Assembly: GCA_027460535.1 (NCBI GenBank)
Contig: JAPZAR010000024.1
Span: forward strand, 90,001-122,000
Source of the DNA: Candidatus Methanoperedens sp.
GTDB taxonomy: Archaea > Halobacteriota > Methanosarcinia > Methanosarcinales > Methanoperedenaceae
Length of the DNA stretch: 32,000 bases
Direction: 5' to 3'
Each line of letters begins with the position of its first letter. The first letter of the stretch is position 1. Below are positions 1 through 22,650 of the stretch, one piece after another. The notes beneath the pieces are model-generated. The model saw only the letters and a list, made by a program, of their open reading frames with translations, was not told the origin of the DNA and searched no databases. The position numbers and the translations under genes are program-made.

Positions 1-71
1 TCTGTATTTTCCAGCGCAGCGCCTTCCAGCGCTTTTATTGTATCTTTTCCAGAAATAACAGGCAACTTCAA
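1..71 (-). CDS. hicA: HicA-like mRNA interferase toxin, N-terminal part only (gene runs off the window start)
   Basis: Minus-strand frame opens with a TTG overlapping the hicB stop (TTGA). It reads KLPVISGKDTIKALE..., the N-terminal HicA/YcfA signature also seen at 2461. The rest lies outside the window and the sequence after KALE looks atypical. Confidence 0.4.
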   Translation of the reverse strand, partial: MKLPVISGKDTIKALEGAALENT

Positions 72-268
72 ACCGTTACCTCTGCTACCTGTCCTGCACC
101 CATGAGGGAAATATCTTCTTCAGGTTCAAGGTAGAGTTCTATGGCTTCTTTTATGTTCTCAAGAGCTTCCTTTTTTGTTTTTCCCTGAGAAATGCAGCCC
201 GGAAGCGAAGGAACTTCGACAACGTACCAGCCATCTTCGCCTTCTGTGATAACGACTTTAAATTTCAT
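68..268 (-). CDS. hicB: HicB family antitoxin (UPF0150)
   Basis: 66-aa ORF. GWYVVEVPSLPGCISQGKTKKEALENIKEAIELYLE is the HicB/UPF0150 signature. A paralogue lies at 2256-2468. Its stop overlaps the putative hicA start. Confidence 0.8.
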   Translation of the reverse strand: MKFKVVITEGEDGWYVVEVPSLPGCISQGKTKKEALENIKEAIELYLEPEEDISLMGAGQVAEVTV

Positions 269-308
269 GGTGTTTATTTTGCATATATGTACTTATATGG
301 TTACTGTG

Positions 309-367
309 AATCAGCGCCGTTCTTCGAGTGCGCATGGGCGGCGCGCTTTCTTGCTGCGGAGGCGGCG
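309..367 (+). repeat. GC-rich intergenic repeat, copy 1 (diverged)
   Basis: AATCAGCGCCGTTCTTCGAGTGCGCATGGGCGGCGCGCTTTCTTGCTGCGGAGGCGGCG aligns with copies at 1309, 2122 and 2699 with a handful of substitutions. All copies share the same orientation. Confidence 0.8.
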
Positions 368-432
368 TTATGAGTAAAGCCGATGAGGCGTTTGGGCGAC
401 TGGAGCCAAATAGCTTCTTCTGGAACAAAACG

Positions 433-915
433 TTAATCTCCAAGAATAGCCTCTTTTGATTTTATTATCGTAAAATCTTTCTTTTCAATATCTGCAATAA
501 GTTTTTTCAGTTCGTCGTGCTTAAGGATTTTTCTTAGTTTCAAAGCCCTTAAAATGTCTTCCATATCCAGAAAATTAATGTTGTTTTGTCTGCAAAATTT
601 TTTCACGAATCTATCGTTTGTGAGCAAAATTCCATTTCTTGATTTACACAGCACAATCAACTGGCATTCGCCTTCATGCAGGTCTTTCCTGCTTTCCAGC
701 AGATTCCTGAAATCCTTGAATTCATCTTCAGAAGGAAGGATAATTTCGACATTTTGGAAAATTTCATCTACAAAAGAGTAGCCGGCGCGCTTTGAGCGCA
801 TGAGTTCTTCGTAAATGGAGGGAGAAATACCCAGTTCTCTGAAGAATTCCTTAAGATACTTTACCGCATTTGCCTTGGCAAAGGCACTCAGAATATCCGC
901 ATCTGCAAAAAACAT
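433..915 (-). CDS. PIN-like nucleic-acid-binding toxin (DUF3368 / COG2405 type)
   Basis: 160-aa ORF. Its ATG overlaps the stop of the upstream UPF0175 gene by 1 nt (TAATG). Size, the acidic residues (FFADADIL, HEGECQ, LTND) and pairing with a UPF0175 partner fit the known COG2886-COG2405 TA pair. Confidence 0.6.
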   Translation of the reverse strand: MFFADADILSAFAKANAVKYLKEFFRELGISPSIYEELMRSKRAGYSFVDEIFQNVEIILPSEDEFKDFRNLLESRKDLHEGECQLIVLCKSRNGILLTNDRFVKKFCRQNNINFLDMEDILRALKLRKILKHDELKKLIADIEKKDFTIIKSKEAILGD

Positions 916-1229
916 TAAACTAACCCGAGCTTTTTTAGTTTTTTGTCAATTTCTTTAACCGATTTACCTTCAGTTCTTCTAACTATACCCCTTCCCGCCA
1001 TGACTTCTTTAAACTCGATTGTTGTCATGCCTGCAAGCTCGGCAGCCCTTGCGAGTGAGACTTTTTCTTTGAGGTACAGTTCGATAGCTAAAGAAATCCT
1101 CAATTCTGCTTTTGTATTTAATAATGCTCTGAAAGCATCCCTCATTAAATCGGATTTTGAAGGATAGTATCCCTTTTTTACGAGAATATCAAGCTCTTCG
1201 CTTATATCCGGATAGTCTAATGCTTCCAT
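915..1229 (-). CDS. UPF0175 / COG2886 family antitoxin
   Basis: 104-aa ORF with the LAIELYLKEKVSLARAAELAGMTTIEF helix-turn-helix typical of UPF0175. It is translationally coupled to the downstream PIN-like gene. Confidence 0.6.
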   Translation of the reverse strand: MEALDYPDISEELDILVKKGYYPSKSDLMRDAFRALLNTKAELRISLAIELYLKEKVSLARAAELAGMTTIEFKEVMAGRGIVRRTEGKSVKEIDKKLKKLGLV

Positions 1230-1308
1230 TTTTGTATCACTGAATTACAATTGGAGACGAGACTTTAAATAGCTTTTCGAAAAGCTTCCAGCGCAGCCAA
1301 CCAGCCCT

Positions 1309-1386
1309 AATCGGCGCCGTTCTTTGAGTGCCCATGGGCGGCGCGCTTTCCTGTTGCGGAGGCTGCGGGATGGGCGCGAGGGCGAA
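1309..1386 (+). repeat. GC-rich intergenic repeat, copy 2
   Basis: 1309-1377 is identical base for base (69 nt) to 2699-2767. It contains the 10-bp palindrome GCCCATGGGC (1330-1339). Hand count gives about 68% G+C in an AT-rich neighbourhood. Confidence 0.9.
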
Positions 1387-1476
1387 TGAGTTCGGATGTT
1401 TCTCAGCAGGTGAAATAGTTCAGGCTGTTACTACATTTAGTAATCTTTATATGTACTACATATAATAACTACATAT

Positions 1477-1701
1477 ATGGATTACACGACTGTTTCAGCA
1501 AAGATACCAAGAGAAGTCAAGCATAAAATTGAAGAGTATGGAATAAAACCATCCGAAGTTATAAGAAAAGCTATACAGAATGAAATTAAAAAATTTGAGA
1601 TTATGAACCTCAAAAAAGAATCAGAATTGCTAAAACCAATTATCAATAAAATCAAGAGCGAACAGGTTGCAAAATCAATTCGGGAGGATAGGGAGAGATG
1701 A
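1477..1701 (+). CDS. vapB: Ribbon-helix-helix (VapB-like) antitoxin
   Basis: 74-aa ORF. Its N-terminus (TTVSAKIPREVKHKIEEYGIKPSEVIRKAIQNEI) has a strand-helix-helix pattern. It overlaps the downstream PIN gene by 4 nt (ATGA). Confidence 0.6.
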   Translation: MDYTTVSAKIPREVKHKIEEYGIKPSEVIRKAIQNEIKKFEIMNLKKESELLKPIINKIKSEQVAKSIREDRER

Positions 1702-2093
1702 TTTATGATGCAAGTTCCATTTATAGAGCTATCGAAATTGGAGATTTTAATAAGCTGCTGGAAGGAAAAACTCTGGATTTAGCGCAATATGAGCTTGGGA
1801 ACGTGGTCTGGAAAGAGGTTACAAGAAAGAAAATATCAGAAAGCGAAGGAGCAAAATTGATAAAATTTATCTCGAAGGTCATTTCTTTGATGGAGATTTT
1901 AAAAATCGGGATCAAGAATGAAGTTCTCAAGGTAGCGGTGGATAACAATTTGAGTTACTATGACGCCTCGTATCTCTATGCATCAATTTCAATGAAGGAT
2001 GTCCTTGTAACCGAGGATAAAAAGCTGCTTGATAGAGCGATTGAGTGCAGCGCGGATGCCGGAAGGTTTGAGGATCTTTTAGATAAAAAGTGA
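1698..2093 (+). CDS. vapC: VapC PIN-domain ribonuclease toxin
   Basis: 131 aa with N-terminal MIYDAS (first PIN Asp), YYDASYLY and VTEDKKL acidic motifs. It is coupled to an upstream small antitoxin. Confidence 0.8.
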   Translation: MIYDASSIYRAIEIGDFNKLLEGKTLDLAQYELGNVVWKEVTRKKISESEGAKLIKFISKVISLMEILKIGIKNEVLKVAVDNNLSYYDASYLYASISMKDVLVTEDKKLLDRAIECSADAGRFEDLLDKK

Positions 2094-2121
2094 CCAGAGC
2101 TTTCGGCGTGGTTTATTCCCG

Positions 2122-2160
2122 AACCGGCGCCGTCCTTTGAATGCGCATGGGCGGCACGCG
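2122..2160 (+). repeat. GC-rich intergenic repeat, copy 3 (truncated, diverged)
   Basis: AACCGGCGCCGTCCTTTGAATGCGCATGGGCGGCACGCG matches the 5' half of the repeat. The 3' half is absent. Confidence 0.7.
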
Positions 2161-2255
2161 GTGTATTCTGGACAGGATTCAGTGCAACATAAAGGGTAGC
2201 ATTGCATCTCATGCTGGGAAAACATTTTAACTCATAAACGGTATATTTCCAGACG

Positions 2256-2468
2256 ATGAAATACACAATCATACTTGAAAAAGAGGAAGAAGGCGGCTAC
2301 TCTGCCCAGTGTCTTGAGCTGCCTGGCGCCATCAGCCAGGGTGAAACAAAACAGGAAGCACTTCGAAATATTAAAGAGGCGATAGAGCTGGTTCTGGAAG
2401 TGATTAATGAAGAAGTAAAGACACTGGGGAATGCTGCTGAAATATCTGCGGTGGAAGTAAGTGTCTGA
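2256..2468 (+). CDS. hicB: HicB family antitoxin (UPF0150)
   Basis: 70 aa. GGYSAQCLELPGAISQGETKQEALRNIKEAIELVLE is the HicB signature. An intact ORF. Confidence 0.85.
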   Translation: MKYTIILEKEEEGGYSAQCLELPGAISQGETKQEALRNIKEAIELVLEVINEEVKTLGNAAEISAVEVSV

Positions 2469-2677
2469 AAAGCTGCCTGTTATCTCTGGAAAAGAGACAG
2501 TCAAAGTGCTGGTAAAATTGGTGTTTGAGGTTAGAATGGGAAGGGGTGACCATGTTGTTCTCAAGAAAGGTTTTCGAGTGTTTGTAGTACCTTCATAATC
2601 CTTTAAAGTAAGGGACTTTAAGGAAGATCTTGAAGCAGGCAGGCGTTTCTGTTGAAGAATTCAATACGATGTTATGA
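2461..2677 (+). pseudogene. hicA: hicA toxin pseudogene (one frameshift plus one in-frame TAA)
   Basis: GTG at 2461 overlaps the hicB stop and reads VSEKLPVISGKETVKVLVKLVFEVRMGRGDHVVLKKGFRVFVVPS, then stops at 2596-2598. The +1 frame continues HNPLK-TAA(2609-2611)-GTLRKILKQAGVSVEEFNTML, the conserved HicA C-terminus. Confidence 0.75.
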
Positions 2678-2698
2678 TTTGAGTTATCTCGAGGGTTG

Positions 2699-2780
2699 AA
2701 TCGGCGCCGTTCTTTGAGTGCCCATGGGCGGCGCGCTTTCCTGTTGCGGAGGCTGCGGGATGGGCGCAGGGGGGCGGCGA
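2699..2780 (+). repeat. GC-rich intergenic repeat, copy 4
   Basis: Identical to copy 2 over 69 nt (2699-2767), with a G-rich tail after that. Palindrome GCCCATGGGC at 2720-2729. Confidence 0.9.
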
Positions 2781-2799
2781 AGAACTTGTGGTATTTGAA

Positions 2800-3141
2800 T
2801 TAATCTGGAAGCCCCACTTCGGTTGTTGCATCGGCCAAGAGATGAAATACATAGCCGAGGAAAAAACTCGAAATAATATAAAAGATATTAATAAGTAAAC
2901 CTATCAAAGCTGTTATAATCAATATCTTACCCATTAATTTTAAAGCTCTTTTGCTATGACCTAAACCTCTGTGCATCCAGCTTGCAGGAGCTTCTAAAAT
3001 ATCTGGGATAATAGAACCTAAAACAACAGCTATAAATGCATATACGACTACATCTGTAGAAATTCTAATGATTAAATAAATGAGATAAGTGTACACTATA
3101 AAGGCGATAGCACCTATAGTTAAATGCTGTTGCCTATTCAT
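2800..3141 (-). CDS. Membrane-bound metal-dependent hydrolase, YdjM/DUF457-like
   Basis: 113 aa with 3-4 hydrophobic helices. Motifs PDILE, HRGLGHS and GYVFHLLADATT resemble the DUF457 His/Asp pattern. AT-rich gene. Confidence 0.5.
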   Translation of the reverse strand: MNRQQHLTIGAIAFIVYTYLIYLIIRISTDVVVYAFIAVVLGSIIPDILEAPASWMHRGLGHSKRALKLMGKILIITALIGLLINIFYIISSFFLGYVFHLLADATTEVGLPD

Positions 3142-3515
3142 TTTTGTTTTACAGCTTGTATAGCACGATATAACTCTAAGATGTCTGATCTATTCCCATT
3201 GACCTTGAATTCATTTAAATCAAGGTGCATTTTCTTTAAAATAGTACCTGTTTCAACCATTTTATAAGATTTTATTTGGTCAATTGGTATTTCATTGAGT
3301 ACATCAGATTTGAAAACAATTAAATTACTTTTACGTGTATAAAAAATAACTCGATTGTTCGTTACGTAGCCTTTGAAGCCTGCTATATTGCCAACATATA
3401 GACTACCTTTTGTCATATATACAACGCTTTCATTCGGCATTAGAAATTTTTCTATTCCCAGACCAGACAATCTTGAAGTTTCGCTTAAAGTTTTCTTAAC
3501 AATTTCTTCGACCAT
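3138..3515 (-). CDS. Hypothetical protein, possible bacterial-type PH/GRAM-like domain
   Basis: 125-aa ORF overlapping the downstream DUF457 gene by 4 nt. The pattern ESVVYMTKG...GYVTNNRVIFY...IPIDQI resembles bPH-type domains. This is weak, memory-based recognition. Confidence 0.35.
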   Translation of the reverse strand: MVEEIVKKTLSETSRLSGLGIEKFLMPNESVVYMTKGSLYVGNIAGFKGYVTNNRVIFYTRKSNLIVFKSDVLNEIPIDQIKSYKMVETGTILKKMHLDLNEFKVNGNRSDILELYRAIQAVKQK

Positions 3516-3607
3516 ACTTATCCCTCTGTCTAAATCATTAATTCTATAGTTGATAAATATATCGTAAGTCTTAATTCTCTAATTGTCAATAACAACCCTC
3601 AAACCCT

Positions 3608-3676
3608 ACTCCCCAGAACCACTTCGTCCTCGCATAATTTCCATCTGTGATCAGAATATCCCCTGCAAAACTCCTC
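3608..3676 (-). repeat. Orphan diverged duplicate of the lhr 3' end
   Basis: ACTCCCCAGAACCACTTCGTCCTCGCATAATT...ATCAGAATATCCCCTGCAAAACTCCTC aligns at roughly 80% identity, with 2 single-base indels, to 4376-4442. That segment encodes the last ~22 codons of lhr. Similarity ends abruptly on both sides. Confidence 0.8.
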
Positions 3677-3732
3677 AGAACTTCTGTATCAGAATGACTG
3701 AACTTGAAATCATCGGAAAACCTTCACCTTCC

Positions 3733-4125
3733 TCACTCCCCCAAATACACGACATCCTTCACGCCTTTAAAATGCGGGTCACCTGTCATGAGCATGGCGC
3801 CCTCCCTTTTTGCAGTTGCATAAACGATAGAATCGCCAAGACCCCATTTCATCTTATGTTTCAACCTCGCCGATTCAACGGCGATATTTTCATCCACTTC
3901 AAAGATGTATGACCTCTGCCTCATCGCCTCCCGTGAAGCTTCAGCAAGACGCTCGTTATCAGGATAAGGAAAATCCCGCAGGAATGAATTATATACTTCA
4001 GCAATATTGATGGCGCTTACTATCACTTTTTCTCTGGGATTTTCAATTAATTCCCTTACTTTCTCGCCATGAGTGGTTCCATTAAAATACTCTATCCAGC
4101 CCCAGGAATCAACCAAGACGGTCAT
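3733..4125 (-). CDS. vapC: VapC PIN-domain toxin
   Basis: The preferred start is the internal Met giving MTVLVDSWGWIEYF... (130 aa). PIN acidic residues are present: D6, NIAEV, GDSIVYATA, TGDPHF. The longer 165-aa ORF would overlap the antitoxin extensively. Confidence 0.8.
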   Translation of the reverse strand: MTVLVDSWGWIEYFNGTTHGEKVRELIENPREKVIVSAINIAEVYNSFLRDFPYPDNERLAEASREAMRQRSYIFEVDENIAVESARLKHKMKWGLGDSIVYATAKREGAMLMTGDPHFKGVKDVVYLGE

Positions 4126-4309
4126 CTTCTTCCTCGTGCCTCTTAAATTCCTTAAGTCCCGGAAATGCTCCAAAATACGATTTCTTAAACTTCTTCTTGG
4201 ATTTGATAAGCTCCCGGATAACTTCTTCATAGCTCTTGAGGTTCAGCTCCTTTTTCAAAGCGCTGAGTTCTTTCAGGAGGTCTTCATGCACCTGAATGGT
4301 TGTTACCAT
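4109..4309 (-). CDS. vapB: VapB-like antitoxin
   Basis: 66 aa from the internal Met (MVTTIQVHEDLLKELSALKKEL...). It overlaps the vapC start by 17 nt. The N-terminal extension of the 102-aa ORF would run into the lhr stop region. Confidence 0.55.
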   Translation of the reverse strand: MVTTIQVHEDLLKELSALKKELNLKSYEEVIRELIKSKKKFKKSYFGAFPGLKEFKRHEEEDDRLG

Positions 4310-4373
4310 TTTATCATCTATAGCTCTATAGATTATATGATGGGATAAAGCTTTACCATCCCTGAAATTTCCA

Positions 4374-7193
4374 CTACTCCCAGAACCTCTTGGTCTTCGC
4401 ATAATTCCTCTCAGCAATCAGAATATCCCTGTAAAACTCCTCCTCATCCTCCCTCATTTTCCCGATTACCCGCGAAGCAGTCTCAGGCCCGATCCCCCTC
4501 GACGCAAGCGCAATAGCCGCAGTCTTCCCGTGTGAGAGCACAATGTTCGCATTCCGATAAACCCGCGCGGTTCTTTTTCTCTCCTCCTCTGTTTTTTCCT
4601 TATCAGGTTTCTTCACGAGTTTTATCTCATCTTCTTCCCAAGGCTTGAGCGCAGCGATCAAACGACTGCTGCATAATGGGCATTCCGGGCGCTCGGGGAC
4701 TCTTTTAACCGCAGTATGGGAGCGCCACTTCTTGCAGTTCACGCAGAAAAGGATAACATGGTCATCCATTATCCTGCTCTTCAGCGCCATTATTATGGAA
4801 CTGTCCGCCCTCTCAGGCGCCATCAATTCCCGCCCTCCCATAAAACCCGCCTCGCCTATCGGGCTTACGGGCTGAACGATGAGCTTCACGCTGCCACTCT
4901 GGATCGCGCTCAATACGGACCTGGCACGTGTTATATCGAGCTTATCATGGAATATCTCCCGCACCGCTTCATCGTACATGGGCGTATGCTCGAAAACCTC
5001 AAGCAGCCTTCTCATACTTATGCGGTCATAATCCACGTCACGGCTCAGCGCGCCGAATTTCCGCGCCACATGCACCATCTTCCATTTGAGCAGCATGGTA
5101 TTCTTGAGCGTCATTTCAATTATCGGCTCTATGTGATCCGGGCTGGTCGTCAGTATCATTTCCTTTATCTTTTCTGCATTGAGCATCCGGGGAAGTTCAA
5201 GCTTTATCCTGTAAGGATCTATCTCCATTGCCACGCTTGAGCCGAACCTCGCGGTGAGAAGGGATGTGAGCACGCGCCCCAGGGTCTCGTTCACTTTATG
5301 ACCGCCGCAGATATTGATCACAATGGATTTCCCATCCTGTTCTATGATTGCTGTTTCATCGGTCGGCACCGTGAGTTTCGCCTTCTGCTGTTTCTGGATC
5401 AATTCAAGTATCTCGCCTGCTGCCTCGCTATCAGCAGGATAATCCTTTCTATATTCCTCTACAATTCTTTCTGGACTCAATCCGCTCGTTAGATTCGCAG
5501 CTATGCGCTTTCTTATCCCTCCCACTTCCTCTGCTACCTCATGGGGCACGGGTATCTCCTCTCCCACCCAGTTCGGGATCTCACCGCCCGGATCCGATAT
5601 CGGCTCCACTTTTATCCTGCTTTTATCAGTAATTATCTCGATGATGCGCCACATCTCGCCTTTTGCAATGAATACTGCGCCTGCTTCCGCAAAATCCACC
5701 ACGAATGCTTCGTCCAGTGCACCCACCGTCTTTCCGCTCACGATATCAAATATCTCAAAACGCTTCTCATCCGGTATCATGGAGAGATTTTCATAGAAAT
5801 ACTGCCAGCTCTTCCGTTTCTTTCCCACAGTGTCGTTCTCAAACCACACGAGCCTGTTGTCGTTCAATTGTTTGACAACCTCACGCAGTAACTCGATCTT
5901 GAGATCGCGATACGGATATGCCCTTTTAACAATCGAATAAACTTTTTCAATTGAAATCTCCCCGAAATCCAGCACCATTCCGCATACCTGGTTCGCCAAT
6001 GTATCCGTGCTGTTCTCATGAATATCTATTTTCTCAATCTCACCGGCCTTTGCCCTCCGCGTGATCGCGCTGGTTTCAGCTGCATCATCTGCACCTGTTG
6101 TTATTATCGTCCCGCTCGAAGGTTCTCCGACCCAGTGTCCTGCCCTTCCCACCCTCTGGATAAGTCGGGTGACCTGCCGTGGGGACATGTACTGGATCAC
6201 ATGGTCCACATCTCCGATATCTATCCCGAGTTCCATGGAGGAAGTGCATATAAGACCTGAAAGTATACCCTGTTTGAAATTATTTTCTGCTTCAATGCGC
6301 GTATCCCTGGAAAGAGAGCCGTGATGCACCCCGATGGGAATATTCAGCATCTTGAACCTAGAACCCAGCATCTCAGCGGATTCTCGAGTATTCACGAATA
6401 TAAGTGTGGATTTGTGATTTCCAACAATGTCAGAGATCACCCGAAGATGTGAAGCCATTTCCGGCGTGCACATCAGTTTTTTTGAAAAATCGTGGTCCTG
6501 CGAACCGGGTTTTGGGCATACTACATTGAAATCAAGCTGCTTTATGAGGGAGACTTCGACAACGCGGGCTGTTCTGTTCGTCCCTGCAAGAAAATGTGCG
6601 ATCTCTTCAGGTTCCCCCACAGTCGCAGATAGACCTATCCTCTGGAACTCCCCGCACACTTCGATAAGACGTTCAAGGGCGATGGATAGTTGTGCTCCCC
6701 TCTTAGAAGTAGCCAGTTCATGTACTTCATCAATAATCACATGCGTTACTGTTCTGAGGTTAGTGCGAAGCCGTCTACCGGTGAGCATTACCTGGAGCGT
6801 TTCAGGTGTGGTGACAAGGAGATCCGGAGGCTTAAGGGATTGCTTTTGCCGCTCATATGTGGTTGTATCCCCGTGCCTCACTGCCACCTTTATGCCCAGC
6901 TCTTTCCCCCACCATTCAAGACGTGAAAGCATATCACGGTTAAGTGCTCTCAGCGGAGTGATGTATAGCGCAGATATCCCGCGTCTTTCTTCTTCTTTTT
7001 TTTGCATGATGCTATCAAATAACGGGAGCACTGCAGATTCGGTTTTGCCCGAGCCTGTGGGTGCAATGAGCAATACGTGTTCTGCGGCAAGAATTGCCGG
7101 AATTGTTTTTACCTGGGGCTCAGTCGGGGTATTAAATCCCTGTTTAGCGAGTGCATCCTGGATCCGGGGATTGAGTAGACTGAACACGCTCAT
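4374..7193 (-). CDS. lhr: Lhr-like ATP-dependent DEXH-box helicase with C-terminal Zn-ribbon region
   Basis: 939 aa with Walker A APTGSGKT, motif II IIDEVHEL, LSATV and motif VI QRVGRAGH. It has the long C-terminal extension typical of the Lhr core, with CVNCKK...CPLCSS. Confidence 0.9.
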   Translation of the reverse strand: MSVFSLLNPRIQDALAKQGFNTPTEPQVKTIPAILAAEHVLLIAPTGSGKTESAVLPLFDSIMQKKEEERRGISALYITPLRALNRDMLSRLEWWGKELGIKVAVRHGDTTTYERQKQSLKPPDLLVTTPETLQVMLTGRRLRTNLRTVTHVIIDEVHELATSKRGAQLSIALERLIEVCGEFQRIGLSATVGEPEEIAHFLAGTNRTARVVEVSLIKQLDFNVVCPKPGSQDHDFSKKLMCTPEMASHLRVISDIVGNHKSTLIFVNTRESAEMLGSRFKMLNIPIGVHHGSLSRDTRIEAENNFKQGILSGLICTSSMELGIDIGDVDHVIQYMSPRQVTRLIQRVGRAGHWVGEPSSGTIITTGADDAAETSAITRRAKAGEIEKIDIHENSTDTLANQVCGMVLDFGEISIEKVYSIVKRAYPYRDLKIELLREVVKQLNDNRLVWFENDTVGKKRKSWQYFYENLSMIPDEKRFEIFDIVSGKTVGALDEAFVVDFAEAGAVFIAKGEMWRIIEIITDKSRIKVEPISDPGGEIPNWVGEEIPVPHEVAEEVGGIRKRIAANLTSGLSPERIVEEYRKDYPADSEAAGEILELIQKQQKAKLTVPTDETAIIEQDGKSIVINICGGHKVNETLGRVLTSLLTARFGSSVAMEIDPYRIKLELPRMLNAEKIKEMILTTSPDHIEPIIEMTLKNTMLLKWKMVHVARKFGALSRDVDYDRISMRRLLEVFEHTPMYDEAVREIFHDKLDITRARSVLSAIQSGSVKLIVQPVSPIGEAGFMGGRELMAPERADSSIIMALKSRIMDDHVILFCVNCKKWRSHTAVKRVPERPECPLCSSRLIAALKPWEEDEIKLVKKPDKEKTEEERKRTARVYRNANIVLSHGKTAAIALASRGIGPETASRVIGKMREDEEEFYRDILIAERNYAKTKRFWE

Positions 7194-7224: not shown

Positions 7225-7788
7225 CTATTCTATTACAGACGAACAATTGCCGTCTTTTCCGCTTTCGAGAACCATTTCCAGATAGGATTTGCGGATGGTC
7301 GATTCCCTGCTTATGTTCAGCTTTTCAAGCAATCTAAAGATACTCTCAACTTTTTCTTCATGATTCTTTGATTTCATCGCGGATATCTCGATCTCAATGA
7401 AATTTCCAAGATTCCTTACCTCATCAAGGGCAATAAAAAATTCTCCGAGCCTGTAATTTTTCCTTTTCTTCACTATGGTCGCAACGGGACAAAAACCAAG
7501 AGATGTTAAAATCTCTCCCATGTTATGACCGCCCTTTATCCCCACCTCGAATTCTTTTCTCGTTTTGGATATCTTGTCCATTTTGGGGCCTTTGTAGGTC
7601 AAAAAATATTCACTGCCTTTGACCCTTATTCTCAATGCTTCGTCCGTCTTTCCGAAATCACGGTATGGTGCGTTGTAATAAGTGTCTGCCTGGGTCTCTA
7701 TTCCTATAGGTGCTGCACCAAGTGCGATTATAGACCTCTCTAAGTGCTTGGGGTCATCCACATACGCTTTCACTTCGACTTCTATCAT
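7225..7788 (-). CDS. CYTH-domain protein (class IV adenylate cyclase / triphosphate tunnel metalloenzyme)
   Basis: 187 aa. The N-terminal IEVEVK is the ExExK CYTH signature, followed by the RIR and FIEIE strands of the tunnel fold. Confidence 0.8.
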   Translation of the reverse strand: MIEVEVKAYVDDPKHLERSIIALGAAPIGIETQADTYYNAPYRDFGKTDEALRIRVKGSEYFLTYKGPKMDKISKTRKEFEVGIKGGHNMGEILTSLGFCPVATIVKKRKNYRLGEFFIALDEVRNLGNFIEIEISAMKSKNHEEKVESIFRLLEKLNISRESTIRKSYLEMVLESGKDGNCSSVIE

Positions 7789-7927
7789 TTATTGTCTGTT
7801 CGCCGTGCTGGTATATGAAACTGCCCATTTTTCAGGTATGGATATGCGAATCAAATATTCTAGACAATAGATTCGTTAAATATATCTGGATTGATTGTAA
7901 TCATTTTGTGAATTCAGAGATGACTGA

Positions 7928-8155
7928 ATGACAGAGGATAATGTAGTACTTATCGGGAACAAACCTGTGATTAATTATGTTCTCGCAGTGATTACGCAGT
8001 TCAATAATGGTGCCAGAGAAGTTACCATTAAATCAAGAGGAAGGGCAATATCAAGAGCTGTTGATGTAGCTGAGGTAACACGGAACAGGTTCCTGACCGA
8101 AGCCATTATAAAGGAAATAAGGATTGGCACTGAAAAAATGCCTTCGGAAAGATGA
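7928..8155 (+). CDS. albA: Alba chromatin/RNA-binding protein, ORF closed prematurely by an in-frame TGA
   Basis: [51 protein letters not shown] is a near-canonical Alba sequence. The ORF ends at TGA 8153-8155. The same frame continues ESNISTMEIVMVK to TAG at 8195-8197, matching the usual Alba C-terminal strand. Confidence 0.85.
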
Positions 8156-8314
8156 GAATCAAACATCTCTACAATGGAAATTGTAATGGTTAAATAGTCA
8201 AAATCGCCGCAATATATCACAAATTATTTAAGCCTGCAGGGATAAGAACATTGATTGCCCGAAAAACGGGACAAAAACGGGGTACGGTATTATATAGGAT
8301 AGGCAACATCTGAA

Positions 8315-9295
8315 ATGAATTTAGTGAGGCAACGATCAATGTCATCTACATGGCACAGCTTTGGCTTTGAAATGAAAAACAAATACGTATGTATTTTAGC
8401 CGCAGCATTCTTTTTATTGGTTCCTGTTGTTTCTGCTCAGCAGGACGTATCCTGTTACCACTGCCACACGCAGGTGGTCAGTGAATTCAGAAATAATATC
8501 CATTACCAGATGGGTTTCACCTGTGCGAATTGTCATGGAGGGAATGCCCAATCAAATGTTTCTGTTGTATCTGTGGAGGCAATGTCCGGGAATTTCATAG
8601 GCAGGCCCTCGCGCGAGAATATAACGAATGTTTGCTCAAAGTGCCACATCAAGGAAGCCAATGACTACATGCAGAGCATACACTGGGAACAGATCAAAAA
8701 AGGTCATACCGAAGCCGCAACGTGTACCGATTGCCACGGCATACATGAAATTCGTGCGATAAGCGATCCCAATTCCTCTTCAAACCATCAGAACAGCCCG
8801 GCAACATGTGCAAAATGCCATTCCAACAAAGAGATGATGAGCGCATGGTATTATGGAATCAAGACAGACCGGCTGGATACCTATAAGGAATCCTTTCACT
8901 GGAAGGCTTTAAGCAATGGATATAATGTAGTGGCGACATGCGCTGACTGCCACAACAACCATCTCACGAAATCTACAACTGATCCCACTTCAAGCACTTA
9001 TCCTGAAAATCTCCCCAAGACCTGTGGTAAAGCGAACTGCCATCCTGGAGCTATATTAGATGTCAAGATCGCCGCTGGTCTGGTTCATGATAAGGAGTCA
9101 CTGCACACAGGAGAACTCAGTTTCAATAAGACAGGCATGGACCCACAGATGGATTCATATTTCTTGGGGCCATTTGATCTTGCATATTGGATAGCCCTAT
9201 TTTTCAAGATATTGACAACTGGCGTCATAGGCATATTTGCGGGCATGGTGCTTCTGGATTTCTTTTCAAGATTCAAGATTCAAAAGAGATGGTAA
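8315..9295 (+). CDS. Membrane-anchored multihaem c-type cytochrome (6 CxxCH + 1 CxxxxCH)
   Basis: Haem motifs CYHCH, CANCH, CSKCH, CTDCH, CAKCH and CADCH, plus CGKANCH. An N-terminal signal-like helix (ILAAAFFLLVPVVSA-QQ) suggests the true start may be the Met at 8372. There is a C-terminal hydrophobic anchor (WIALFFKILTTGVIGIFAGMVLL). Confidence 0.9.
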   Translation: MNLVRQRSMSSTWHSFGFEMKNKYVCILAAAFFLLVPVVSAQQDVSCYHCHTQVVSEFRNNIHYQMGFTCANCHGGNAQSNVSVVSVEAMSGNFIGRPSRENITNVCSKCHIKEANDYMQSIHWEQIKKGHTEAATCTDCHGIHEIRAISDPNSSSNHQNSPATCAKCHSNKEMMSAWYYGIKTDRLDTYKESFHWKALSNGYNVVATCADCHNNHLTKSTTDPTSSTYPENLPKTCGKANCHPGAILDVKIAAGLVHDKESLHTGELSFNKTGMDPQMDSYFLGPFDLAYWIALFFKILTTGVIGIFAGMVLLDFFSRFKIQKRW

Positions 9296-9298
9296 CTG

Positions 9299-10054
9299 AT
9301 GTCAAGACTTAAGCTAATGGAAGTCTCAGTTCCTAACGATTTAGCAGGAGATAGTACTATGGGTGAAGTTTTCTTTAAGCGGTTCACATTCAACCAGCTT
9401 GTACAGCATTGGGTAATGATAGGTACTTTCATGCTTTTAGTGGTCACAGGTATGGCTGTCAAATTCCCTGACTCATGGTGGTCTCCAATGATCATAGGCC
9501 TTGTTGGCGGATTTGAAATGCGGACGCAGATACACCATGCAGCGGGCATTGGGATGGTTCTTCTGGGGATATACCATGTTACATATCATATTTTTGTGGA
9601 TAAGGAATCTCTGCTTGAGCGCAAAGTCTGGCCGACGGTGAAGGATGCAACGGATTTCTGGCAAACGATACTCTTTTACATCGGAAAAGCAGAGCCCCCC
9701 AAATATGGAAGATATAGCTGGAAGGAAAAATTCGATTACTGGGGAGCTTTCTGGGGAATGGTGATGCTTTGCGTTACCGGATTGATAATGATGTTCCCTT
9801 TCGTGGCAATGAAATATATTCCTTATGCGTATGTGCAACTTTCAACCATCGTACATAGCGACGAGGCGCTGCTGGCGACCCTTTTCATCTTCATAGTCCA
9901 TTGGTGGAATGTTCATTATAGTCCCGAGGTATTTCCAATGTCAAAAGCCTGGATCACGGGGAACCTATCTGAGGAGCAGATGAAACATGAACATCCTCTT
10001 GAGTATGAAGAGGCCATGAGACAGATGAACCAGAGAAATGAAAAGATATCCTGA
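9299..10054 (+). CDS. Cytochrome b-type membrane subunit (FdnI/HydC, Ni_hydr_CYTB-like)
   Basis: 251 aa starting 4 nt after the cytochrome c stop. It has 4-5 TM helices with conserved His residues (QHW, IHHAAG, YHVTYH, VHSDEA, VHWWNVH), as in dihaem b subunits of quinol-oxidising complexes. Confidence 0.7.
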   Translation: MSRLKLMEVSVPNDLAGDSTMGEVFFKRFTFNQLVQHWVMIGTFMLLVVTGMAVKFPDSWWSPMIIGLVGGFEMRTQIHHAAGIGMVLLGIYHVTYHIFVDKESLLERKVWPTVKDATDFWQTILFYIGKAEPPKYGRYSWKEKFDYWGAFWGMVMLCVTGLIMMFPFVAMKYIPYAYVQLSTIVHSDEALLATLFIFIVHWWNVHYSPEVFPMSKAWITGNLSEEQMKHEHPLEYEEAMRQMNQRNEKIS

Positions 10055-10296
10055 TCTGGAATTTCACCAAAAATTGAAAGATATCAAAGTTCTCATATAG
10101 CCATCATCTTTTTTTTGCAGAATCGAGGCTCCAAGAGCGAGATAGCCGTTTAAGAAACATCCACCTGGAAATTATGCATGGACTTCCCATTGGAACTTTG
10201 GCATATCAATTCAGGCACCCAAATCACAGGAATAAATCCTGCCCAGGTTGAAGAAAAAACATTAGCAAATTCTTAAATATTCCATAGCGTATTGAA

Positions 10297-11484
10297 ATGA
10301 AATCAAAAAAATATGGGTCAAATTTAAATTCCGGAGATAACACCATGCATTATATGAAACATAATTATTGGGATGGGAAGCCCATTTCTCCCATACCTCT
10401 TGCCGGAAATATGACCGTTACCGAGCTGGTTGACGATGTATTCGATGCGATGGGATATAATGCAAAAAGACTGGCTGAGGCATGTCATCTGTTCAAGACC
10501 ATGATAGATAATAACTCGACAGTGTGCCTGACGCTGGCCGGTGCGATGAGCCCCGTAGGTATGGGTGGAGGAATCATTAAAATGATCGAGCGCGGTTTCA
10601 TAGATTGGATAGTAACGACAGGCGCCAATACCTATCATGATATGCATTTTGCATATAAGCTACCCGTGCATCAGGGAGATTACACAGCAGATGATAATGA
10701 ACTTGCAGACAACGATGTGGTCAGGATCTATGATGTTTACATCGACATGCAGCGAACGCTTATTGCCCAGGATAAGATTGTCCAGGCACTGACCCAGAAA
10801 GCTATTGAAAAAAATAAATTCCCTAAGAAATTCTCATCCGCACATTATTATAAAACTCTCGGTGAAGGAATACTGGAAACAGCGAATGCTCCTGAGTTAT
10901 CTTTCATCGCATCGGCATCAAAAAATGATATTCCGGTGTTTGTGCCCGCATTTGCTGATTCCTCTGTGGGGATGGGTACGAGCTACCTCCCGATAATAGC
11001 CTGCGCAAAATCAGGCTCGAAGGAACTTGATCCCCTGGATTTCATGGACCCAAGCCCCACGATGGATGTTCTGGAAAGCGCTGCAATCGTGTACCACAGC
11101 ATGATGGAAGATATCCCGCGCGGTGTCCTTGAGGTAGGTGGAGGCGTGCCAAAGAACTTCCTCCAGCAGACAGCCCCCACGATTTCCCAGATTCTGGGTA
11201 TGGAATGTCCGGGTGAGAATTATGTCATCCAGGTAACCGTGGACCGACCTGATGTCGGCGGTCTCTCAGGAGCCACGATAAATGAAGGCAAATCATGGGG
11301 CAAGATCCCGAAGGCCGGGGAAGGGAATGTAATACCTTACATTGACGCAACTGTTGGTGTGCCAATAATTTTCGCTTATGCCCTTGAGAACTGCAAACCC
11401 AGGAAGCCTAAGAGAATAAGCAGGAAACTGCCTGAAATCAGGCAGGAACTTGTTGAAGCTGCGATGGAGAACGTGAAAAAGTAA
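10297..11484 (+). CDS. dys: Deoxyhypusine synthase
   Basis: Motifs LTLAGAMSPVGMGG, TTGANTYHD and NEGKSWGKI (catalytic Lys region). The true start may be a downstream Met (10345 or 10354). Confidence 0.85.
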   Translation: MKSKKYGSNLNSGDNTMHYMKHNYWDGKPISPIPLAGNMTVTELVDDVFDAMGYNAKRLAEACHLFKTMIDNNSTVCLTLAGAMSPVGMGGGIIKMIERGFIDWIVTTGANTYHDMHFAYKLPVHQGDYTADDNELADNDVVRIYDVYIDMQRTLIAQDKIVQALTQKAIEKNKFPKKFSSAHYYKTLGEGILETANAPELSFIASASKNDIPVFVPAFADSSVGMGTSYLPIIACAKSGSKELDPLDFMDPSPTMDVLESAAIVYHSMMEDIPRGVLEVGGGVPKNFLQQTAPTISQILGMECPGENYVIQVTVDRPDVGGLSGATINEGKSWGKIPKAGEGNVIPYIDATVGVPIIFAYALENCKPRKPKRISRKLPEIRQELVEAAMENVKK

Positions 11485-11495
11485 TGCTGGGAGGA

Positions 11496-11735
11496 TTACT
11501 CCTCTTCGCGGGTTATCCAGTAAAGCGCTTTAAACCGCTCCGCAAAACCGTAGATATTCTTTGCCATTACAGCCCTGCCGTATTCGATCAATTCTCCTCC
11601 GCGGTCAAGGATATAAGTATTCTCGCCTAGTTTTGTCACTTTAAATATCTCGCCCTTATCTTCCGTTCCAACATGTAGAACGTCTCCGATCTTCAAACCT
11701 CTGAGATCCGGTCTTTTCGTTGTTTTCTCCACCAT
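11496..11735 (-). CDS. Small hypothetical protein
   Basis: 79-aa ORF, non-overlapping, lying downstream of tyrA on the same strand. No recognisable motif. Confidence 0.4.
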   Translation of the reverse strand: MVEKTTKRPDLRGLKIGDVLHVGTEDKGEIFKVTKLGENTYILDRGGELIEYGRAVMAKNIYGFAERFKALYWITREEE

Positions 11736-11778
11736 ACTATCACTATTCCTGTCTGCGTGTGTTCATTAATATTAAATC

Positions 11779-13080
11779 TTACCTGATCGTACAGCCAATC
11801 CCTCTTAGAATACCCTCAACACTTCCCTGGACAACCGAAGCATCATGATCCCCAAATATTGTGACCCTATATGTAACACTTTTTGTATTCTGTTTATTAT
11901 AAATATCCACGATCTCAACCGAGACCACACCATCTGACCTGCAGACAACGTGTTTTATAATATCCGGGTCTGAATCCTGTGGAATAAAAACTGAGATGTC
12001 ACGTGTCACATTTCTCAGATTGGATGCTTTCCAGGTGAGAAGTTCCTGTTCGTTCAAGAGTCTCACATTCTCGATCAAAAGCTCGGTGGTCTTCCCGGCC
12101 CTCTCTAAAAAAACCGTTCTTGGTGTTACTTTTTTTACAATACCGAAATGTATCACGCCAGAGTAAATGTGCCTTAGCGCGCGCGCGTGACCTATAGAGC
12201 GGACGAGTTCTTCATGCTCCGCTATCTTGGAGCCGATGAGTTTTTCTGAGCCCCGTAGGGCCGATTCGGTATCCCCGAAATGGACTGCGGCTTTTTTCAT
12301 GAGAGCCACAAATCCTTCGATATCCCCATTTCTTACGATCTCAGCCATCTGGTTGCACTGATTTATATAGGCCTTATGAACCTTCGCCACCTCTGGATTC
12401 ATCTGGATCATGGCGTAAAGATACGGGTTCTGGGCCAGTATCCTTCCCACAAGGTCAAGCATTATATCATACATCGGGCTCATGAACCGCCTGGATTTTG
12501 CCACATCGAACTCCAGCTCCCTGAAAACCGAGCCTATTGAGATATATGCAAAATGTGTGAGCCCCTGCACCACAGCCATCGTCCTGTCGTGCTGCGCCGA
12601 ATCCATTATCTCGATATGCGCACCATTATCCTCGTACAGGCTCCTTATGACCGGGAACCACCTGGAACTTCTCCCTTCAACAGGAGTAAAAATGACTATC
12701 TGTCCCCTGATATCAGGTATTGAAGGCCCGAACATGGGATGCGTTCCAAGTATCTCAATATCCACAGGCGCGTATTTTAGCATTGCTTCAACAGGACCTT
12801 TCTTAATTGATGTTATGTCCATAAGCAGGCTACCAGCAGACATTTTCGGAGCTATTTCACTTATGGTTTTTCCGGTTATATTTATCGGGACCGAGATCAT
12901 CACTATATCGCTTGTTTTTATCTCACTGTCAATATCCTCGGCAAACCGAACACCCAAAGCCTCAGCTATATCTTTTCTCTTATTGATCCCCCATATCACG
13001 ACTTCAAAACCATGCTTGCTATAAAATTTAACGAACCACCGTCCCGTTTCGCCCGTACCGCCAATGATCAATATTTTCAT
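11779..13080 (-). CDS. tyrA: Prephenate dehydrogenase with C-terminal regulatory-type extension
   Basis: N-terminal Rossmann motif KILIIGGTGETG and the HPMFGP motif of TyrA. It overlaps aroE by 4 nt. Confidence 0.8.
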   Translation of the reverse strand: MKILIIGGTGETGRWFVKFYSKHGFEVVIWGINKRKDIAEALGVRFAEDIDSEIKTSDIVMISVPINITGKTISEIAPKMSAGSLLMDITSIKKGPVEAMLKYAPVDIEILGTHPMFGPSIPDIRGQIVIFTPVEGRSSRWFPVIRSLYEDNGAHIEIMDSAQHDRTMAVVQGLTHFAYISIGSVFRELEFDVAKSRRFMSPMYDIMLDLVGRILAQNPYLYAMIQMNPEVAKVHKAYINQCNQMAEIVRNGDIEGFVALMKKAAVHFGDTESALRGSEKLIGSKIAEHEELVRSIGHARALRHIYSGVIHFGIVKKVTPRTVFLERAGKTTELLIENVRLLNEQELLTWKASNLRNVTRDISVFIPQDSDPDIIKHVVCRSDGVVSVEIVDIYNKQNTKSVTYRVTIFGDHDASVVQGSVEGILRGIGCTIR

Positions 13081-13892
13081 GCCAGTCTCTCCCTTACTGC
13101 TTTTTCCATGACATCAACTGGCGGTGTCTTCCCTGTCCATATCCTGAATGCTTCTGCACCCTGGTATACGAGCATCATTACCCCGTCGATAGTTCTTGCA
13201 CCCGCTTTCCTGGCTTCCTGGAGCAGTTTCGTGCTCATCGGATTGTAGACGATATCGAAAACCACCAGGCTGCTATGCATCATTTCCGAAGTTACCATGG
13301 TCTCCTCAATTTTCGGAAGCATGCCAACAGCGGTGGAGTTTATGAGAATATCACAGTTTGAAATCCGTTCCTTCAGATCATCAATACCACAACCCCTGGC
13401 TTTTCCAACATTTCTTACATCTTTCGCAAGAGCTTCCGCCCTCTCGACTGTCCTGTTGGCGATCGTGACACTGGCGCCATCCTTTGCCAGCTGGAACGCA
13501 ATTGCACGCGCAGCGCCCCCCGCGCCAAGGAGAAGTACATTTTTCCCTTTGACCTTGATGCCGTTGCTTTCAAGAGCCATTTTGGCACCGATGCCGTCAG
13601 TGTTATATCCCTGGATCCCATTTTTGAAATCCACCGTGTTCACGGCGCCTATCTGCTTTGCGAGATCTGATGGTTTTACTATTTCCAGGGCTTTTTCCTT
13701 CAGTGGAATGGTCAGGTTCAACCCGCCAAACCCAAGAGCGCATGCTCCGTGTATCGCATCTCGGAGGGCTTCAGGACTCACCCTGAATGCATGGTATTCG
13801 CACTCCAATCCCAGGGCTTTAAAGGCAGCATTATGCATGACCGGGGAAAGGCTGTGTGATACAGGGTCACCAAGGACACCGAACAATATCAT
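13077..13892 (-). CDS. aroE: Shikimate dehydrogenase
   Basis: FGVLGDPVSHSLSPVMHNAAF, YNTDGIG and LLGAGGAARA are canonical AroE motifs. Confidence 0.9.
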   Translation of the reverse strand: MILFGVLGDPVSHSLSPVMHNAAFKALGLECEYHAFRVSPEALRDAIHGACALGFGGLNLTIPLKEKALEIVKPSDLAKQIGAVNTVDFKNGIQGYNTDGIGAKMALESNGIKVKGKNVLLLGAGGAARAIAFQLAKDGASVTIANRTVERAEALAKDVRNVGKARGCGIDDLKERISNCDILINSTAVGMLPKIEETMVTSEMMHSSLVVFDIVYNPMSTKLLQEARKAGARTIDGVMMLVYQGAEAFRIWTGKTPPVDVMEKAVRERLA

Positions 13893-13902
13893 GCTATCTT
13901 AA

Positions 13903-18042: not shown

Positions 18043-18075
18043 TTTCCCCTGAATGTTCAATGACTTACATGGCTT

Positions 18076-18093
18076 TAACATATTATAATTTCG
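18076..18093 (+). repeat. Left copy of perfect 18-bp direct repeat TAACATATTATAATTTCG
   Basis: Identical 18-mer at 20551-20568. The two copies sit exactly at the edges of the AT-rich two-gene block. Confidence 0.9.
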
Positions 18094-18158
18094 GGTACTG
18101 TTAAGTTAATGAGTATGTAAAATACTATCTAAAGTTCTCAAAAATATAAAAATTTTTT

Positions 18159-19274: not shown

Positions 19275-19286
19275 AAATTATCTCTC

Positions 19287-20360: not shown

Positions 20361-20550
20361 TTTATTATCATTACTTCTTTTTTGTATATATAATATACTG
20401 CATAAACTTTATTTAACTCAGTGTTGGTTTTTAATGTTTTGTTCATCTTTGGGGTATACCAAATTGAGGAAGCCAAATACCTAACAAAATTAGATGGTTT
20501 GGAGGTTTAATGTTTTAAATCCGAGGTTATTTTACCCCTACTCCTTAATC

Positions 20551-22468: not shown

Positions 22469-22650
22469 CAGACCATTCTTTGCCTTTTAATTTATAAATT
22501 TTTAAAACTTAGCTTTATTTATGTTTGGATTTCCGTAGTGAGAATCCTTTAGACATAGCATAATTGATTGGTTTATTTTTATCTTTAGTTGTAAGCGTCT
22601 CTATATAATGGCTTTTGATGGCTTAAAGTTTAAAAAAGGATAGATTTTCA

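Follow-up and report, generated by a model that had tools for sequence, protein, structure and literature searches.

Chromosomal integrons, such as the Vibrio cholerae superintegron with its VCR-type attC sites, and clusters of attC sites lacking an integrase (CALINs) hold small genes as cassettes of 0.3 to 1 kb. Each cassette carries one or two genes, and one repeat stands at each junction, always in a single orientation. Toxin-antitoxin (TA) modules are prominent among the cassettes; some are reversed, and they have their own promoters. The repeats are homogeneous within a genome, and each attC site is an imperfect palindrome, conserved at its ends and variable between them. Relatives differ in which cassettes they have and in what order, and in CALINs no integrase adjoins the array. 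Here we describe a locus that resembles these systems in each of these respects, in a 32-kb stretch of DNA from Candidatus Methanoperedens (below, the window). TA modules there lie one by one between same-orientation copies of a short GC-rich sequence, the boundary repeat. The array adjoins the 3' end of the gene for an Lhr-type helicase, as it does in a subset of Candidatus Methanoperedens species. From sequence comparison, we consider it probable that the repeat acts as a DNA-level recombination boundary, that is, an att-like site at which cassettes are inserted, excised and exchanged.

The closest functional analogue of the array is a chromosomal integron or CALIN, but it belongs to neither, since it has no attC boxes and no IntI or attI. 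The Methanoperedens copies are without R'' and R' boxes, their inverted-repeat core is much shorter (~31 nt), and there is no Pc. Unlike an integron, the array has its anchor at the 3' end of a housekeeping gene and includes a second type of boundary, made of duplicates of that gene's 3' end. Its unoccupied site carries the same repeat, not a distinct attI. Archaeal integrons have been reported (Ghaly et al. 2022, PMC9668308), and the supplementary data of that paper include one Methanoperedens CALIN, QYPO01000187.1, whose annotated cassette is GyrI-like. We do not take this CALIN to be the present array: its sole annotated cassette is GyrI-like, it has no TA content, and nothing in the paper links the two, so that it is set apart by annotation and not by sequence.

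Three other systems offer partial parallels. Tandem ("additive") genomic islands, which integrases build up between attL/attR direct repeats, accumulate at the 3' ends of tRNA or protein genes, with the newest insert beside the intact gene and the older ones pushed outward. In the same way, the Methanoperedens arrays contain direct duplicates of the end of Lhr (Lhr', 70 to 204 nt) that run to the stop codon. Unlike additive islands, however, the Methanoperedens inserts are only 0.6 to 0.95 kb and without an integrase, and the GC-rich repeat boundaries lie in no gene. The Xer-dependent pdif modules of Acinetobacter plasmids, which often hold TA or resistance genes, are likewise small and set between short sites on which a chromosomal recombinase would act in trans. 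Neisseria minimal mobile elements, whose cassettes are exchanged through homologous recombination in the conserved flanks, combine a fixed site, small cassettes that alternate between strains and no element-encoded enzyme, which fits a variant of our model that relies on homologous recombination. Unlike the Methanoperedens array, they consist of one cassette between two conserved genes and form no arrays with an internal boundary repeat. Full-text literature searches returned no prior description of the array or the repeat.

Results

Four copies of the boundary repeat lie on the plus strand of the window, at 305-374 (copy 1), 1303-1377 (copy 2), 2115-2159 (copy 3) and 2696-2767 (copy 4). Repeat search, pattern search and nhmmer agreed on these places, and the preliminary description of this DNA, which had reported four GC-rich copies in one orientation, was correct on this point. 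The repeat search of the window resolved a 74-nt family with three members and a 39-nt family with four, each member on the plus strand. A degenerate 25-nt pattern matched the same four places and no others, with 0 matches expected from 100 shuffles, and an nhmmer profile built from 15 copies found the four places and nothing else in the 32 kb (E=2.9e-18 for copy 1). Spaced at 1000, 813 and 577 nt, the copies have a G+C content of 64 to 68%, versus 40% for window positions 1-4373. Each interval between them holds a single TA module, as had been claimed. The stretch 1309-1377 of copy 2 is identical to 2699-2767 of copy 4, so the 69 nt of identity first described are real, whereas copies 1 and 3 are about 10% different. 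This contrast shows a recent conversion or duplication between copies.

The best-conserved part of the repeat is AATCGGCGCCGTCCTTTGAGTGCGCATGGGCGGCGCGC, which can be read in two ways. Read as a stem, it has 9 bp, GCGCCGTYC (GCGCCGTCC) against GGGCGGCGC, and a 13-nt loop; the GCGCCG...CGGCGC inverted repeat noticed earlier is real. Read as a site, the same core has imperfect inverted arms of 11 bp, GCGCCGTCCTT and ATGGGCGGCGC, around a 9-bp centre. In copy 2, on the stem reading, the left arm occupies 1314-1322, the centre 1323-1335 and the right arm 1336-1344, and a shared tail runs on to 1377. Copy 3 comprises a left extension, arms and centre only, and its homology to the other copies ends directly after the right arm. 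After the core, most copies continue with TTTCCCTGCGGCGGGGGCTGCGGG, a possible second hairpin. A 10-bp palindrome, GCCCATGGGC, had also been attributed to the element; it is present in copies 2 and 4, but the other copies carry GCGCATGGGC instead. The unit as first delimited holds for the core but not for its extent, since many copies are longer: a left extension of ~30 nt is common to many, and some have a second right-arm motif, GG(A/G)CGGCGC, in a G-rich tail about 70 nt from the left arm. In all, unit length varies from about 40 to 120 nt, and the shortest units that still bound cassettes measure 38 to 55 nt. The copy at 8416-8464 of L035 (L-numbers denote related Methanoperedens contigs retrieved for comparison) has the left arm and centre followed by GGACGGCGCAGGTGC, the stretch between the first and second right-arm motifs being missing. 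It looks like a deletion between its two internal direct motifs, which confirms that the second arm motif belongs to the unit.

A second, variant family of the repeat reads GCGCGCCCCCCCGGCTCGATGACAGGGCGGCGCC in the orientation of the window. It has the same arms and an unrelated centre, the 11-9-11 layout is found in both families, and its units, like copy 3, end directly after the right arm. Three copies are chimeric. The solitary copy of L016 is L005A-like at all but one of 13 diagnostic positions on the left and L005B-like at the next 8, with the switch between CTCTGA and GTGCGC, in the centre. Copy L003a is canonical from the left arm to TTTGAG; beyond that point its right half differs and is related to L018's terminal, decayed copy. 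At L025 8197-8260, a variant left arm and centre are joined to a canonical right arm and tail. The switch therefore lies in the centre in two chimeric copies and in or just after the shared right arm in the third. Divergence between copy 3 and its counterpart in L018 also breaks in the centre.

We compared the repeat with the hallmarks of attC and dif sites. The attC boxes RYYYAAC-N35-135-GTTRRRY were sought on both strands of the arrays of the window, L003, L005, L016, L018, L019 and L025; the only matches lay inside PIN coding sequence. An attC palindrome is imperfect, spans 57 to 141 nt and folds as single-stranded DNA with extrahelical bases; the boundary unit spans 40 to 110 nt. Its 9-bp stem and 13-nt loop are conserved, and most copies add another hairpin of 8 bp. 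A longer hairpin is possible in some copies through the distal second right arm, and we saw no conserved bulged bases. The array itself has what is expected of attC arrays and CALINs, at least two same-orientation sites with single short cassettes between them, related arrays having 2 to 6 copies. A complete integron has an intI tyrosine recombinase gene next to attI and a Pc promoter, but Pfam detected no integrase in the window, and none is among the precomputed Pfam matches of genes flanking the related arrays. A dif site has 11-bp imperfect inverted arms 6 bp apart (PMC2958812). Against the consensus DBBBCSBATAATRTAYATTATGTHAANT, the repeat scored at best 14 to 16 of 28 (shuffles: mean 15.6, maximum 19), and its arms are 9 bp apart. 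The pdif sites of Acinetobacter are dif-like, with an 11-6-11 layout, and alternate in inverted orientation. Because the Methanoperedens sites are all direct and do not alternate, we conclude that they are not pdif-like; nor, at 11-9-11, are they dif-like.

Related loci, gathered through Lhr orthologues and through contigs with HicB and VapC proteins, display the array in graded states of occupancy. L016 and L017 show an empty site: 25 nt past the stop codon of Lhr stands one copy of the repeat, followed by a convergent cobalamin gene, with no cassette. L005 has one cassette and two copies (SDR gene, repeat, UPF0175/PIN, repeat, Lhr), and L035 reads SDR, repeat, VapBC, repeat, PIN/UPF0175. Outward from Lhr, L019 has a HicA cassette, a 110-nt duplicate of the Lhr 3' end, bPH/YdjM, repeat, an antitoxin remnant, repeat, UPF0175/PIN and a decayed repeat. 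In L018 (= L037), Lhr is followed by a PemK TA module, Lhr' (197 nt), a HicA cassette, Lhr'' (110 nt) and bPH/YdjM, and then by repeat, HicBA, repeat, VapCB, repeat, UPF0175/PIN and a decayed repeat. About nine cassettes are present in L025, with one canonical, one hybrid and four variant copies. The number of repeats accordingly runs from 1 (L016/L017) through 2 (L005), 2 plus a decayed terminal copy (L019), 3 plus a decayed terminal copy (L018) and 4 (window) to 6 (L025). Copy number thus tracks cassette number, starting from one copy at zero cassettes. The cassettes of L020 and L024 are bounded by Lhr' only, and L022 and L023 have no array.

Over 281 kb of Methanoperedens loci, nhmmer found copies only in arrays and on one strand per locus, and the repeat is antisense to Lhr or an Lhr fragment wherever either is in view. 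Many of the copies compared are orthologous, not independent. When 185,579 species genomes were scanned with an exact pattern, four Methanoperedens genomes had a single match apiece, in every case next to homologues of TA genes of the window. A fifth match, in Burkholderiaceae, was attributed to chance, as were three matches in a metagenome scan, which fell in GC-rich bacterial genes. No PLSDB plasmid matched the repeat.

What lies beyond the array on the side opposite Lhr varies between almost all species, so the array occupies a recurrent synteny breakpoint. The distal flank is the rpl3 operon in the window and L009, glnA-nrpR in L001, SDR in L005 and L035, PMSR-SDR in L018, cbi genes in L016, a radical SAM gene in L019 and DUF429-gyrA in L025.

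Duplicates of the Lhr 3' end form the second type of boundary. They reach 70, 110 or ~200 nt (70 to 204 nt) into the gene, and all end at the stop codon. In the window, 3606-3676 duplicates 4374-4444 of Lhr. The others are at 13562-13758 (197 nt) and 14550-14659 (110 nt) of L018, 13334-13443 (110 nt) of L019, 4644-4847 (~204 nt) of L020, 9178-9249 (~72 nt) of L024, and 6030-6205 and 7447-7640 of L003. These fragments show that the newest cassette is always the one adjoining intact Lhr; in L025, for example, a short Lhr' remnant lies between the PemK and VapB2C2 cassettes. The motif GGACGGCGC, the exact complement of the left arm of the repeat, occurs within Lhr itself in L018 (12620) and L020 (3768), 203 nt before the stop. 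It marks the exact start of the ~200-nt Lhr' duplication and is found only in these two genomes, which have the PemK cassette beside Lhr. We set it aside as a link between the two boundary types, the motif being absent from the Lhr of the window, L016 and L019; it may be a chance occurrence or a secondary site.

Comparison between species shows that cassettes differ in number, order and content, and that they have moved as units. Nucleotide identity of host genes between the window and other genomes is 76 to 79% for Lhr and 69 to 75% for CYTH. The vapBC cassette (block 1378-2121), however, is 96.6% identical between the window and L018, though Lhr is 79% identical; vapB2C2 is 93 to 94% identical to its counterparts in L003 and L025; and YdjM-bPH and hicB1 are 81 to 89% identical to those of other genomes. 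In the alignment of the window with L018, identity is 96 to 97% from 1378, where the part common to copy 2 has just ended, up to 2093. It is still 90 to 93% in the left extension of copy 3 (2094-2121) and is 87% in the repeat cores; the adjoining PIN/UPF0175 cassette is only 77% identical. Since cassettes are 83 to 97% identical across species in which Lhr is only 76 to 79% identical, we conclude that they have been transferred horizontally as units.

Cassettes also change place. The order of VapBC and PIN/UPF0175 in L035 is swapped relative to the window and L018. The hicBA#1 cassette stands at the far left in the window, left of PIN/UPF0175, and between VapBC and YdjM in L018. At any array position, the orientation relative to the repeat is constant for each cassette type. 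Blocks of homology between genomes start and stop at repeats, and in L001 and L035 repeat-bounded cassettes lie beside different chromosomal neighbours. An array of cassettes delimited by recombination sites other than attC, as the preliminary description had suggested, is thus supported by the empty site, the variable number of cassettes, the order swap, cassette-specific transfer and the chimeric copies.

Might the array instead consist of scars? Larger integrase-bearing plasmids or viruses could have integrated one after another at or downstream of the Lhr 3' end, each duplicating its att sequence, and decayed to an addictive TA module and an att repeat. The repeat would then be an old attL/attR core, with no cassette-scale movement today. 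Integration at a gene 3' end, in which the element supplies the replacement end, classically leaves direct duplicates of the kind seen here, 70 to 204 nt long and running to the stop codon. The Lhr' boundaries have the direct repeat of the target gene's 3' end that flanks integrative elements. The inserts that they bound contain no integrase and hold only a TA pair (PemK, HicA or VapBC); the loss of the integrase is what decay predicts, and TA modules resist deletion better than any other part of a mobile element. However, the units are uniformly compact, with 335 to 1000 nt between boundaries, and without debris of larger elements. The same cassette occurs at different array positions and in swapped order, and the 97% identity of one cassette beside the 77% of its neighbour requires transfer on the scale of the cassette. 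Moreover, the repeat has no match in IMG/VR viral contigs: four scans for a viral attP returned nothing, or chance matches in high-GC phages only. We regard this explanation as quite unlikely.

A more passive origin seems to us improbable. Here the repeat would be ancestral intergenic sequence from downstream of Lhr, copied by tandem duplication or unequal crossing-over and playing no part in the movement of cassettes, while TA genes gathered in a permissive hotspot. The solitary copy in L016 does show that the sequence is resident at the locus, a TA array exists in L021 without any repeat, and the identity of copies 2 and 4 shows that ordinary homologous recombination or gene conversion acts on the copies. 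Yet the cassettes between copies are mutually unrelated and so are not products of tandem duplication. Nor would passive copying explain homology blocks bounded by repeats, the chimeric copies, arms conserved across two families with unrelated centres, or the repeat-bounded cassettes of L001 and L035 beside different neighbours.

It had also been proposed that the repeat could encode a small structured RNA. Such an RNA (a small RNA, a stabiliser of the 3' untranslated region or a terminator hairpin) would be read from the plus strand and duplicated together with adjacent sequence. Many G-U pairs occur in the two predicted hairpins, and on the opposite strand these would become A-C mismatches; the element is rich in GC amid AT-rich surroundings; and 15 of about 25 copies across all loci follow the 3' end of a same-strand gene. 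The remaining 10 or so, about 40%, have no same-strand gene to carry them: relative to both adjacent genes they are either upstream or antisense, and they have no conserved promoter, as is the case for copies 1 and 2 of the window. Copy 1 is upstream of hicB and downstream of PIN, both on the opposite strand; copy 2 lies between divergent promoters, copy 3 in a tandem 3'/5' gap and copy 4 between convergent genes. Orientation therefore follows the array and Lhr, not the flanking genes, and the earlier statement that the repeat is not simply a promoter stands. Searched against Rfam 15 at gathering score, the window gave a single match, to a group II intron domain (25275-25351), and relaxing the threshold to E<=10 brought no match that overlapped a repeat copy; a tRNA/tmRNA scan found none. 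Fold energies of the copies, on both strands, were not better than those of shuffles (z-scores -1.6 to +1.0). We assessed covariation by counting pairs and with RNAalifold, using 10 and 16 copies. Pairing in helix 1 reaches 98.6%, and its changes are one-sided and wobble-compatible only, with no two-sided ones. In helix 2, five pairs have two-sided changes, a level reached in 0/500 shuffles, but all of these come from three degenerate copies in which half of the helix is broken. An RNA function is, in our judgement, very improbable.

The suggestion of a miniature inverted-repeat transposable element (MITE), or of a mobile repeat like the repetitive extragenic palindromic (REP) type, inserting between genes independently of cassettes, fares worse still, and we give it almost no weight. 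The repeat is indeed short, GC-rich, palindrome-containing and multi-copy, and it breaks assemblies. Reading the copies with their flanks, however, we found no terminal inverted repeats and no target-site duplications: the only inverted repeat is internal (1314-1322/1336-1344), and the flanks have no common duplicated bases. Across the 281 kb, copies occur in a single orientation and only in arrays, their number equals that of the cassettes plus one, and each of the four Methanoperedens species genomes gave one exact-pattern match, always at TA cassettes, within the limited sensitivity of that scan. With no terminal inverted repeats, no target duplications and, within the 281 kb, no dispersed copies, the MITE reading fails. 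Replication-origin elements of the origin recognition box (ORB) type, ends of IS200/IS605 elements and ends of IS91/Helitron elements were also considered and rejected: there is one site per junction, and no Rep or TnpA gene. IS200/IS605 ends would give two hairpins per junction.

A decayed coding remnant in the minus-strand frame KRAAHGHSKNGAD, duplicated at each insertion, is extremely unlikely: although the frame is open through copies 3 and 4 and some homologues, copy 1 is open in a different frame, 1-nt indels break the proposed frame (GGG for GG in L002, L003a and L016; deletions in L019a and L019b), and in the variant family only the arms, not the centre, are kept.

The gene content of the three intervals, predicted earlier as COG2405/COG2886, vapBC and hicB with a decayed hicA, agreed with Pfam, NCBIfam and PDB matches. 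Between copies 1 and 2, on the minus strand, are a PIN-like toxin gene of the DUF3368/COG2405 type (433-915; Pfam PF11848 on an identical protein, the PIN match being weak) and the gene for a UPF0175 (COG2886) antitoxin (915-1229; Pfam UPF0175, 2.6e-12). Between copies 2 and 3, on the plus strand, are vapB (1477-1701; NCBIfam TA_anti_VapB_Sulfo, 4.4e-10, below the curated cut-off) and vapC, a PIN toxin gene (1698-2093; PDB PIN proteins PAE2754/PAE0151 matched at 3e-13). The third interval, also on the plus strand, holds the antitoxin gene hicB2 (2256-2468; Pfam HicB_lk_antitox, 5.2e-09) and hicA2 (2465-2677), which is decayed, with three in-frame stops on translation.

To the left of copy 1, a hicAB pair had been reported. 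Its hicB (cassette hicBA#1; 68-268, minus strand; Pfam HicB_lk_antitox, 8.7e-11) is intact, but its hicA is a 5'-truncated remnant (1-67, minus strand) that forms the left end of the array and is fused to the rpl3 upstream region just outside the window. This emerged from L009, the window's own contig extended leftward, in which the hicA stump is joined directly to the upstream region of the ribosomal protein L3 operon. A full-length homologue of the truncated hicA is present in L018. Both hicA toxin genes of the array are thus dead, one truncated and one with three stops, and both hicB genes are intact and look like orphan antitoxins. The two hicA remnants form an inverted repeat (26-68/2470-2512; see also L009:1271-1580).

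The array extends past copy 4, beyond the part first described, to the Lhr stop codon at 4374. A non-TA cassette at 2800-3515, on the minus strand, encodes a YdjM-like membrane protein (2800-3141) and a bacterial-PH-like (bPH) protein (3138-3515), both identified by Pfam; in L018, L019 and L037, the same pair has a GC-rich repeat on one side and an Lhr' fragment on the other. There follows Lhr' (3606-3676, minus strand), a decayed duplicate of the last 70 nt of Lhr recognised by repeat search and blastn. Next, at the Lhr stop, comes an inserted cassette on the minus strand (3733-4309) with vapC2 (3733-4230; Pfam PIN, 8e-17) and vapB2 (4109-4309; RHH_1/VAPB). The Lhr-type helicase gene itself, the conserved anchor of the array, occupies 4374-7193 on the minus strand, and orthologues are found in about 60 Methanoperedens clusters.

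For this species, public short-read assemblies break inside the repeat: L009 and L010 start, and L013 ends, within copy 2. Most contigs carrying the window's VapC family are only 1 to 2 kb long.

Elsewhere in the window, 25275-25351 on the minus strand matches Rfam model RF00029 (group II intron domain V/VI) over its full length, with 62.9 bits and E=2.7e-10, and lies in a low-GC stretch. As no reverse-transcriptase open reading frame (ORF) was detected among the neighbouring ORFs, it is probably the 3'-end fragment of an intron or an ORF-less intron. Two stretches, 18000-20400 and 22000-25200, have 28 to 38% G+C, versus 43% for the whole window. The first holds two large ORFs without a Pfam match (18159-19274 and 19287-20360) and the second a 170-aa protein with a CcdA-antitoxin-like N-terminus (22954-23466); both may be further islands. 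In L020, the region downstream of the short array (7774-13971) contains a gene cluster similar to that of a phage tail or contractile injection system (AAA ATPase, Pvc16_N, gp19-like tube and sheath).

Discussion

How might the boundary repeat work? An unoccupied locus has one copy, and each cassette of 0.3 to 1 kb that is inserted brings one further copy in the same orientation. Most cassettes are TA pairs that have their own promoters and may face either way. Recombination between two copies would let cassettes enter, leave, change position and pass between species as units. The most economical route would be excision of a circle with one copy, followed by Campbell-type reinsertion at a resident copy; this would reproduce all of the observed states, keep the orientation of each cassette and generate chimeric sites. 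The functional core would be the imperfect inverted repeat, whose arms are kept in both families. The Lhr' fragments would be the expected product of a single crossover between the Lhr 3' end and a circle with a homologous 3' end.

Several observations weigh against the repeat being a recombination boundary. We saw no circular intermediate and no within-population variant, and contigs that represent the species in other samples are co-linear. The window has no gene for a tyrosine or serine recombinase, HUH enzyme or transposase, and neither does the DNA within 10 kb of the related Lhr-anchored arrays examined. In L021, an array of TA modules follows Lhr without any boundary repeat, and in the repeat-bearing arrays some boundaries are simply copies of the Lhr 3' end that have no hairpin. 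The switch points of the chimeras do not fall at a single nucleotide, that of the L025 hybrid lying in or after the right arm, and unit extents vary, with left extension and tail present or absent. The main hairpin has neither a better fold energy than shuffles nor compensatory covariation. Finally, the exact pattern of the genome-collection scan misses known variants, such as the three copies of L018, and the sensitive profile covered 281 kb and no complete genome.

Which catalyst would act on such a recombination boundary? We lean slightly, and tentatively, toward a site-specific recombinase encoded elsewhere in the genome and acting on the inverted-repeat core. This is suggested by the inverted arms and variable centre in two families, by the switches in the centre of two chimeras, and by the sufficiency of units of 38 to 55 nt as boundaries. 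Host homologous recombination alone, acting on repeats of 40 to 120 nt, would suit the absence of a nearby recombinase gene, the variable unit extents, the gene conversion between copies 2 and 4 and the boundaries made of Lhr 3'-end duplicates; we hold it to be rather unlikely. A more ambitious proposal, possible though on balance doubtful, is that the locus represents an independently evolved, integron-like platform for gene capture, pairing short inverted-repeat sites with conserved arms and a free centre with a recombinase encoded elsewhere. Small cassettes with their own promoters, TA modules among them, would be inserted, excised and reordered by that enzyme at a landing pad past the end of Lhr, and it would also mediate their traffic between species.

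The movement of TA modules and small accessory genes between archaeal chromosomes is poorly understood, and to our knowledge few systems of cassette-scale exchange have been documented outside integrons. The Lhr locus offers a testable case. It has a landing pad, consisting of the Lhr 3' end and a single repeat, and a boundary sequence with two natural variants. It also provides natural empty, single-cassette and multi-cassette states, together with evidence of recent transfer across species. On the practical side, the repeat breaks short-read assemblies of Methanoperedens genomes. If a dedicated recombinase acts here, the site-specific system would be a new one and might serve as a genetic tool in organisms that are still without genetics. 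If host recombination alone suffices, a short portable repeat would be enough to make mobile cassettes of selfish TA modules.

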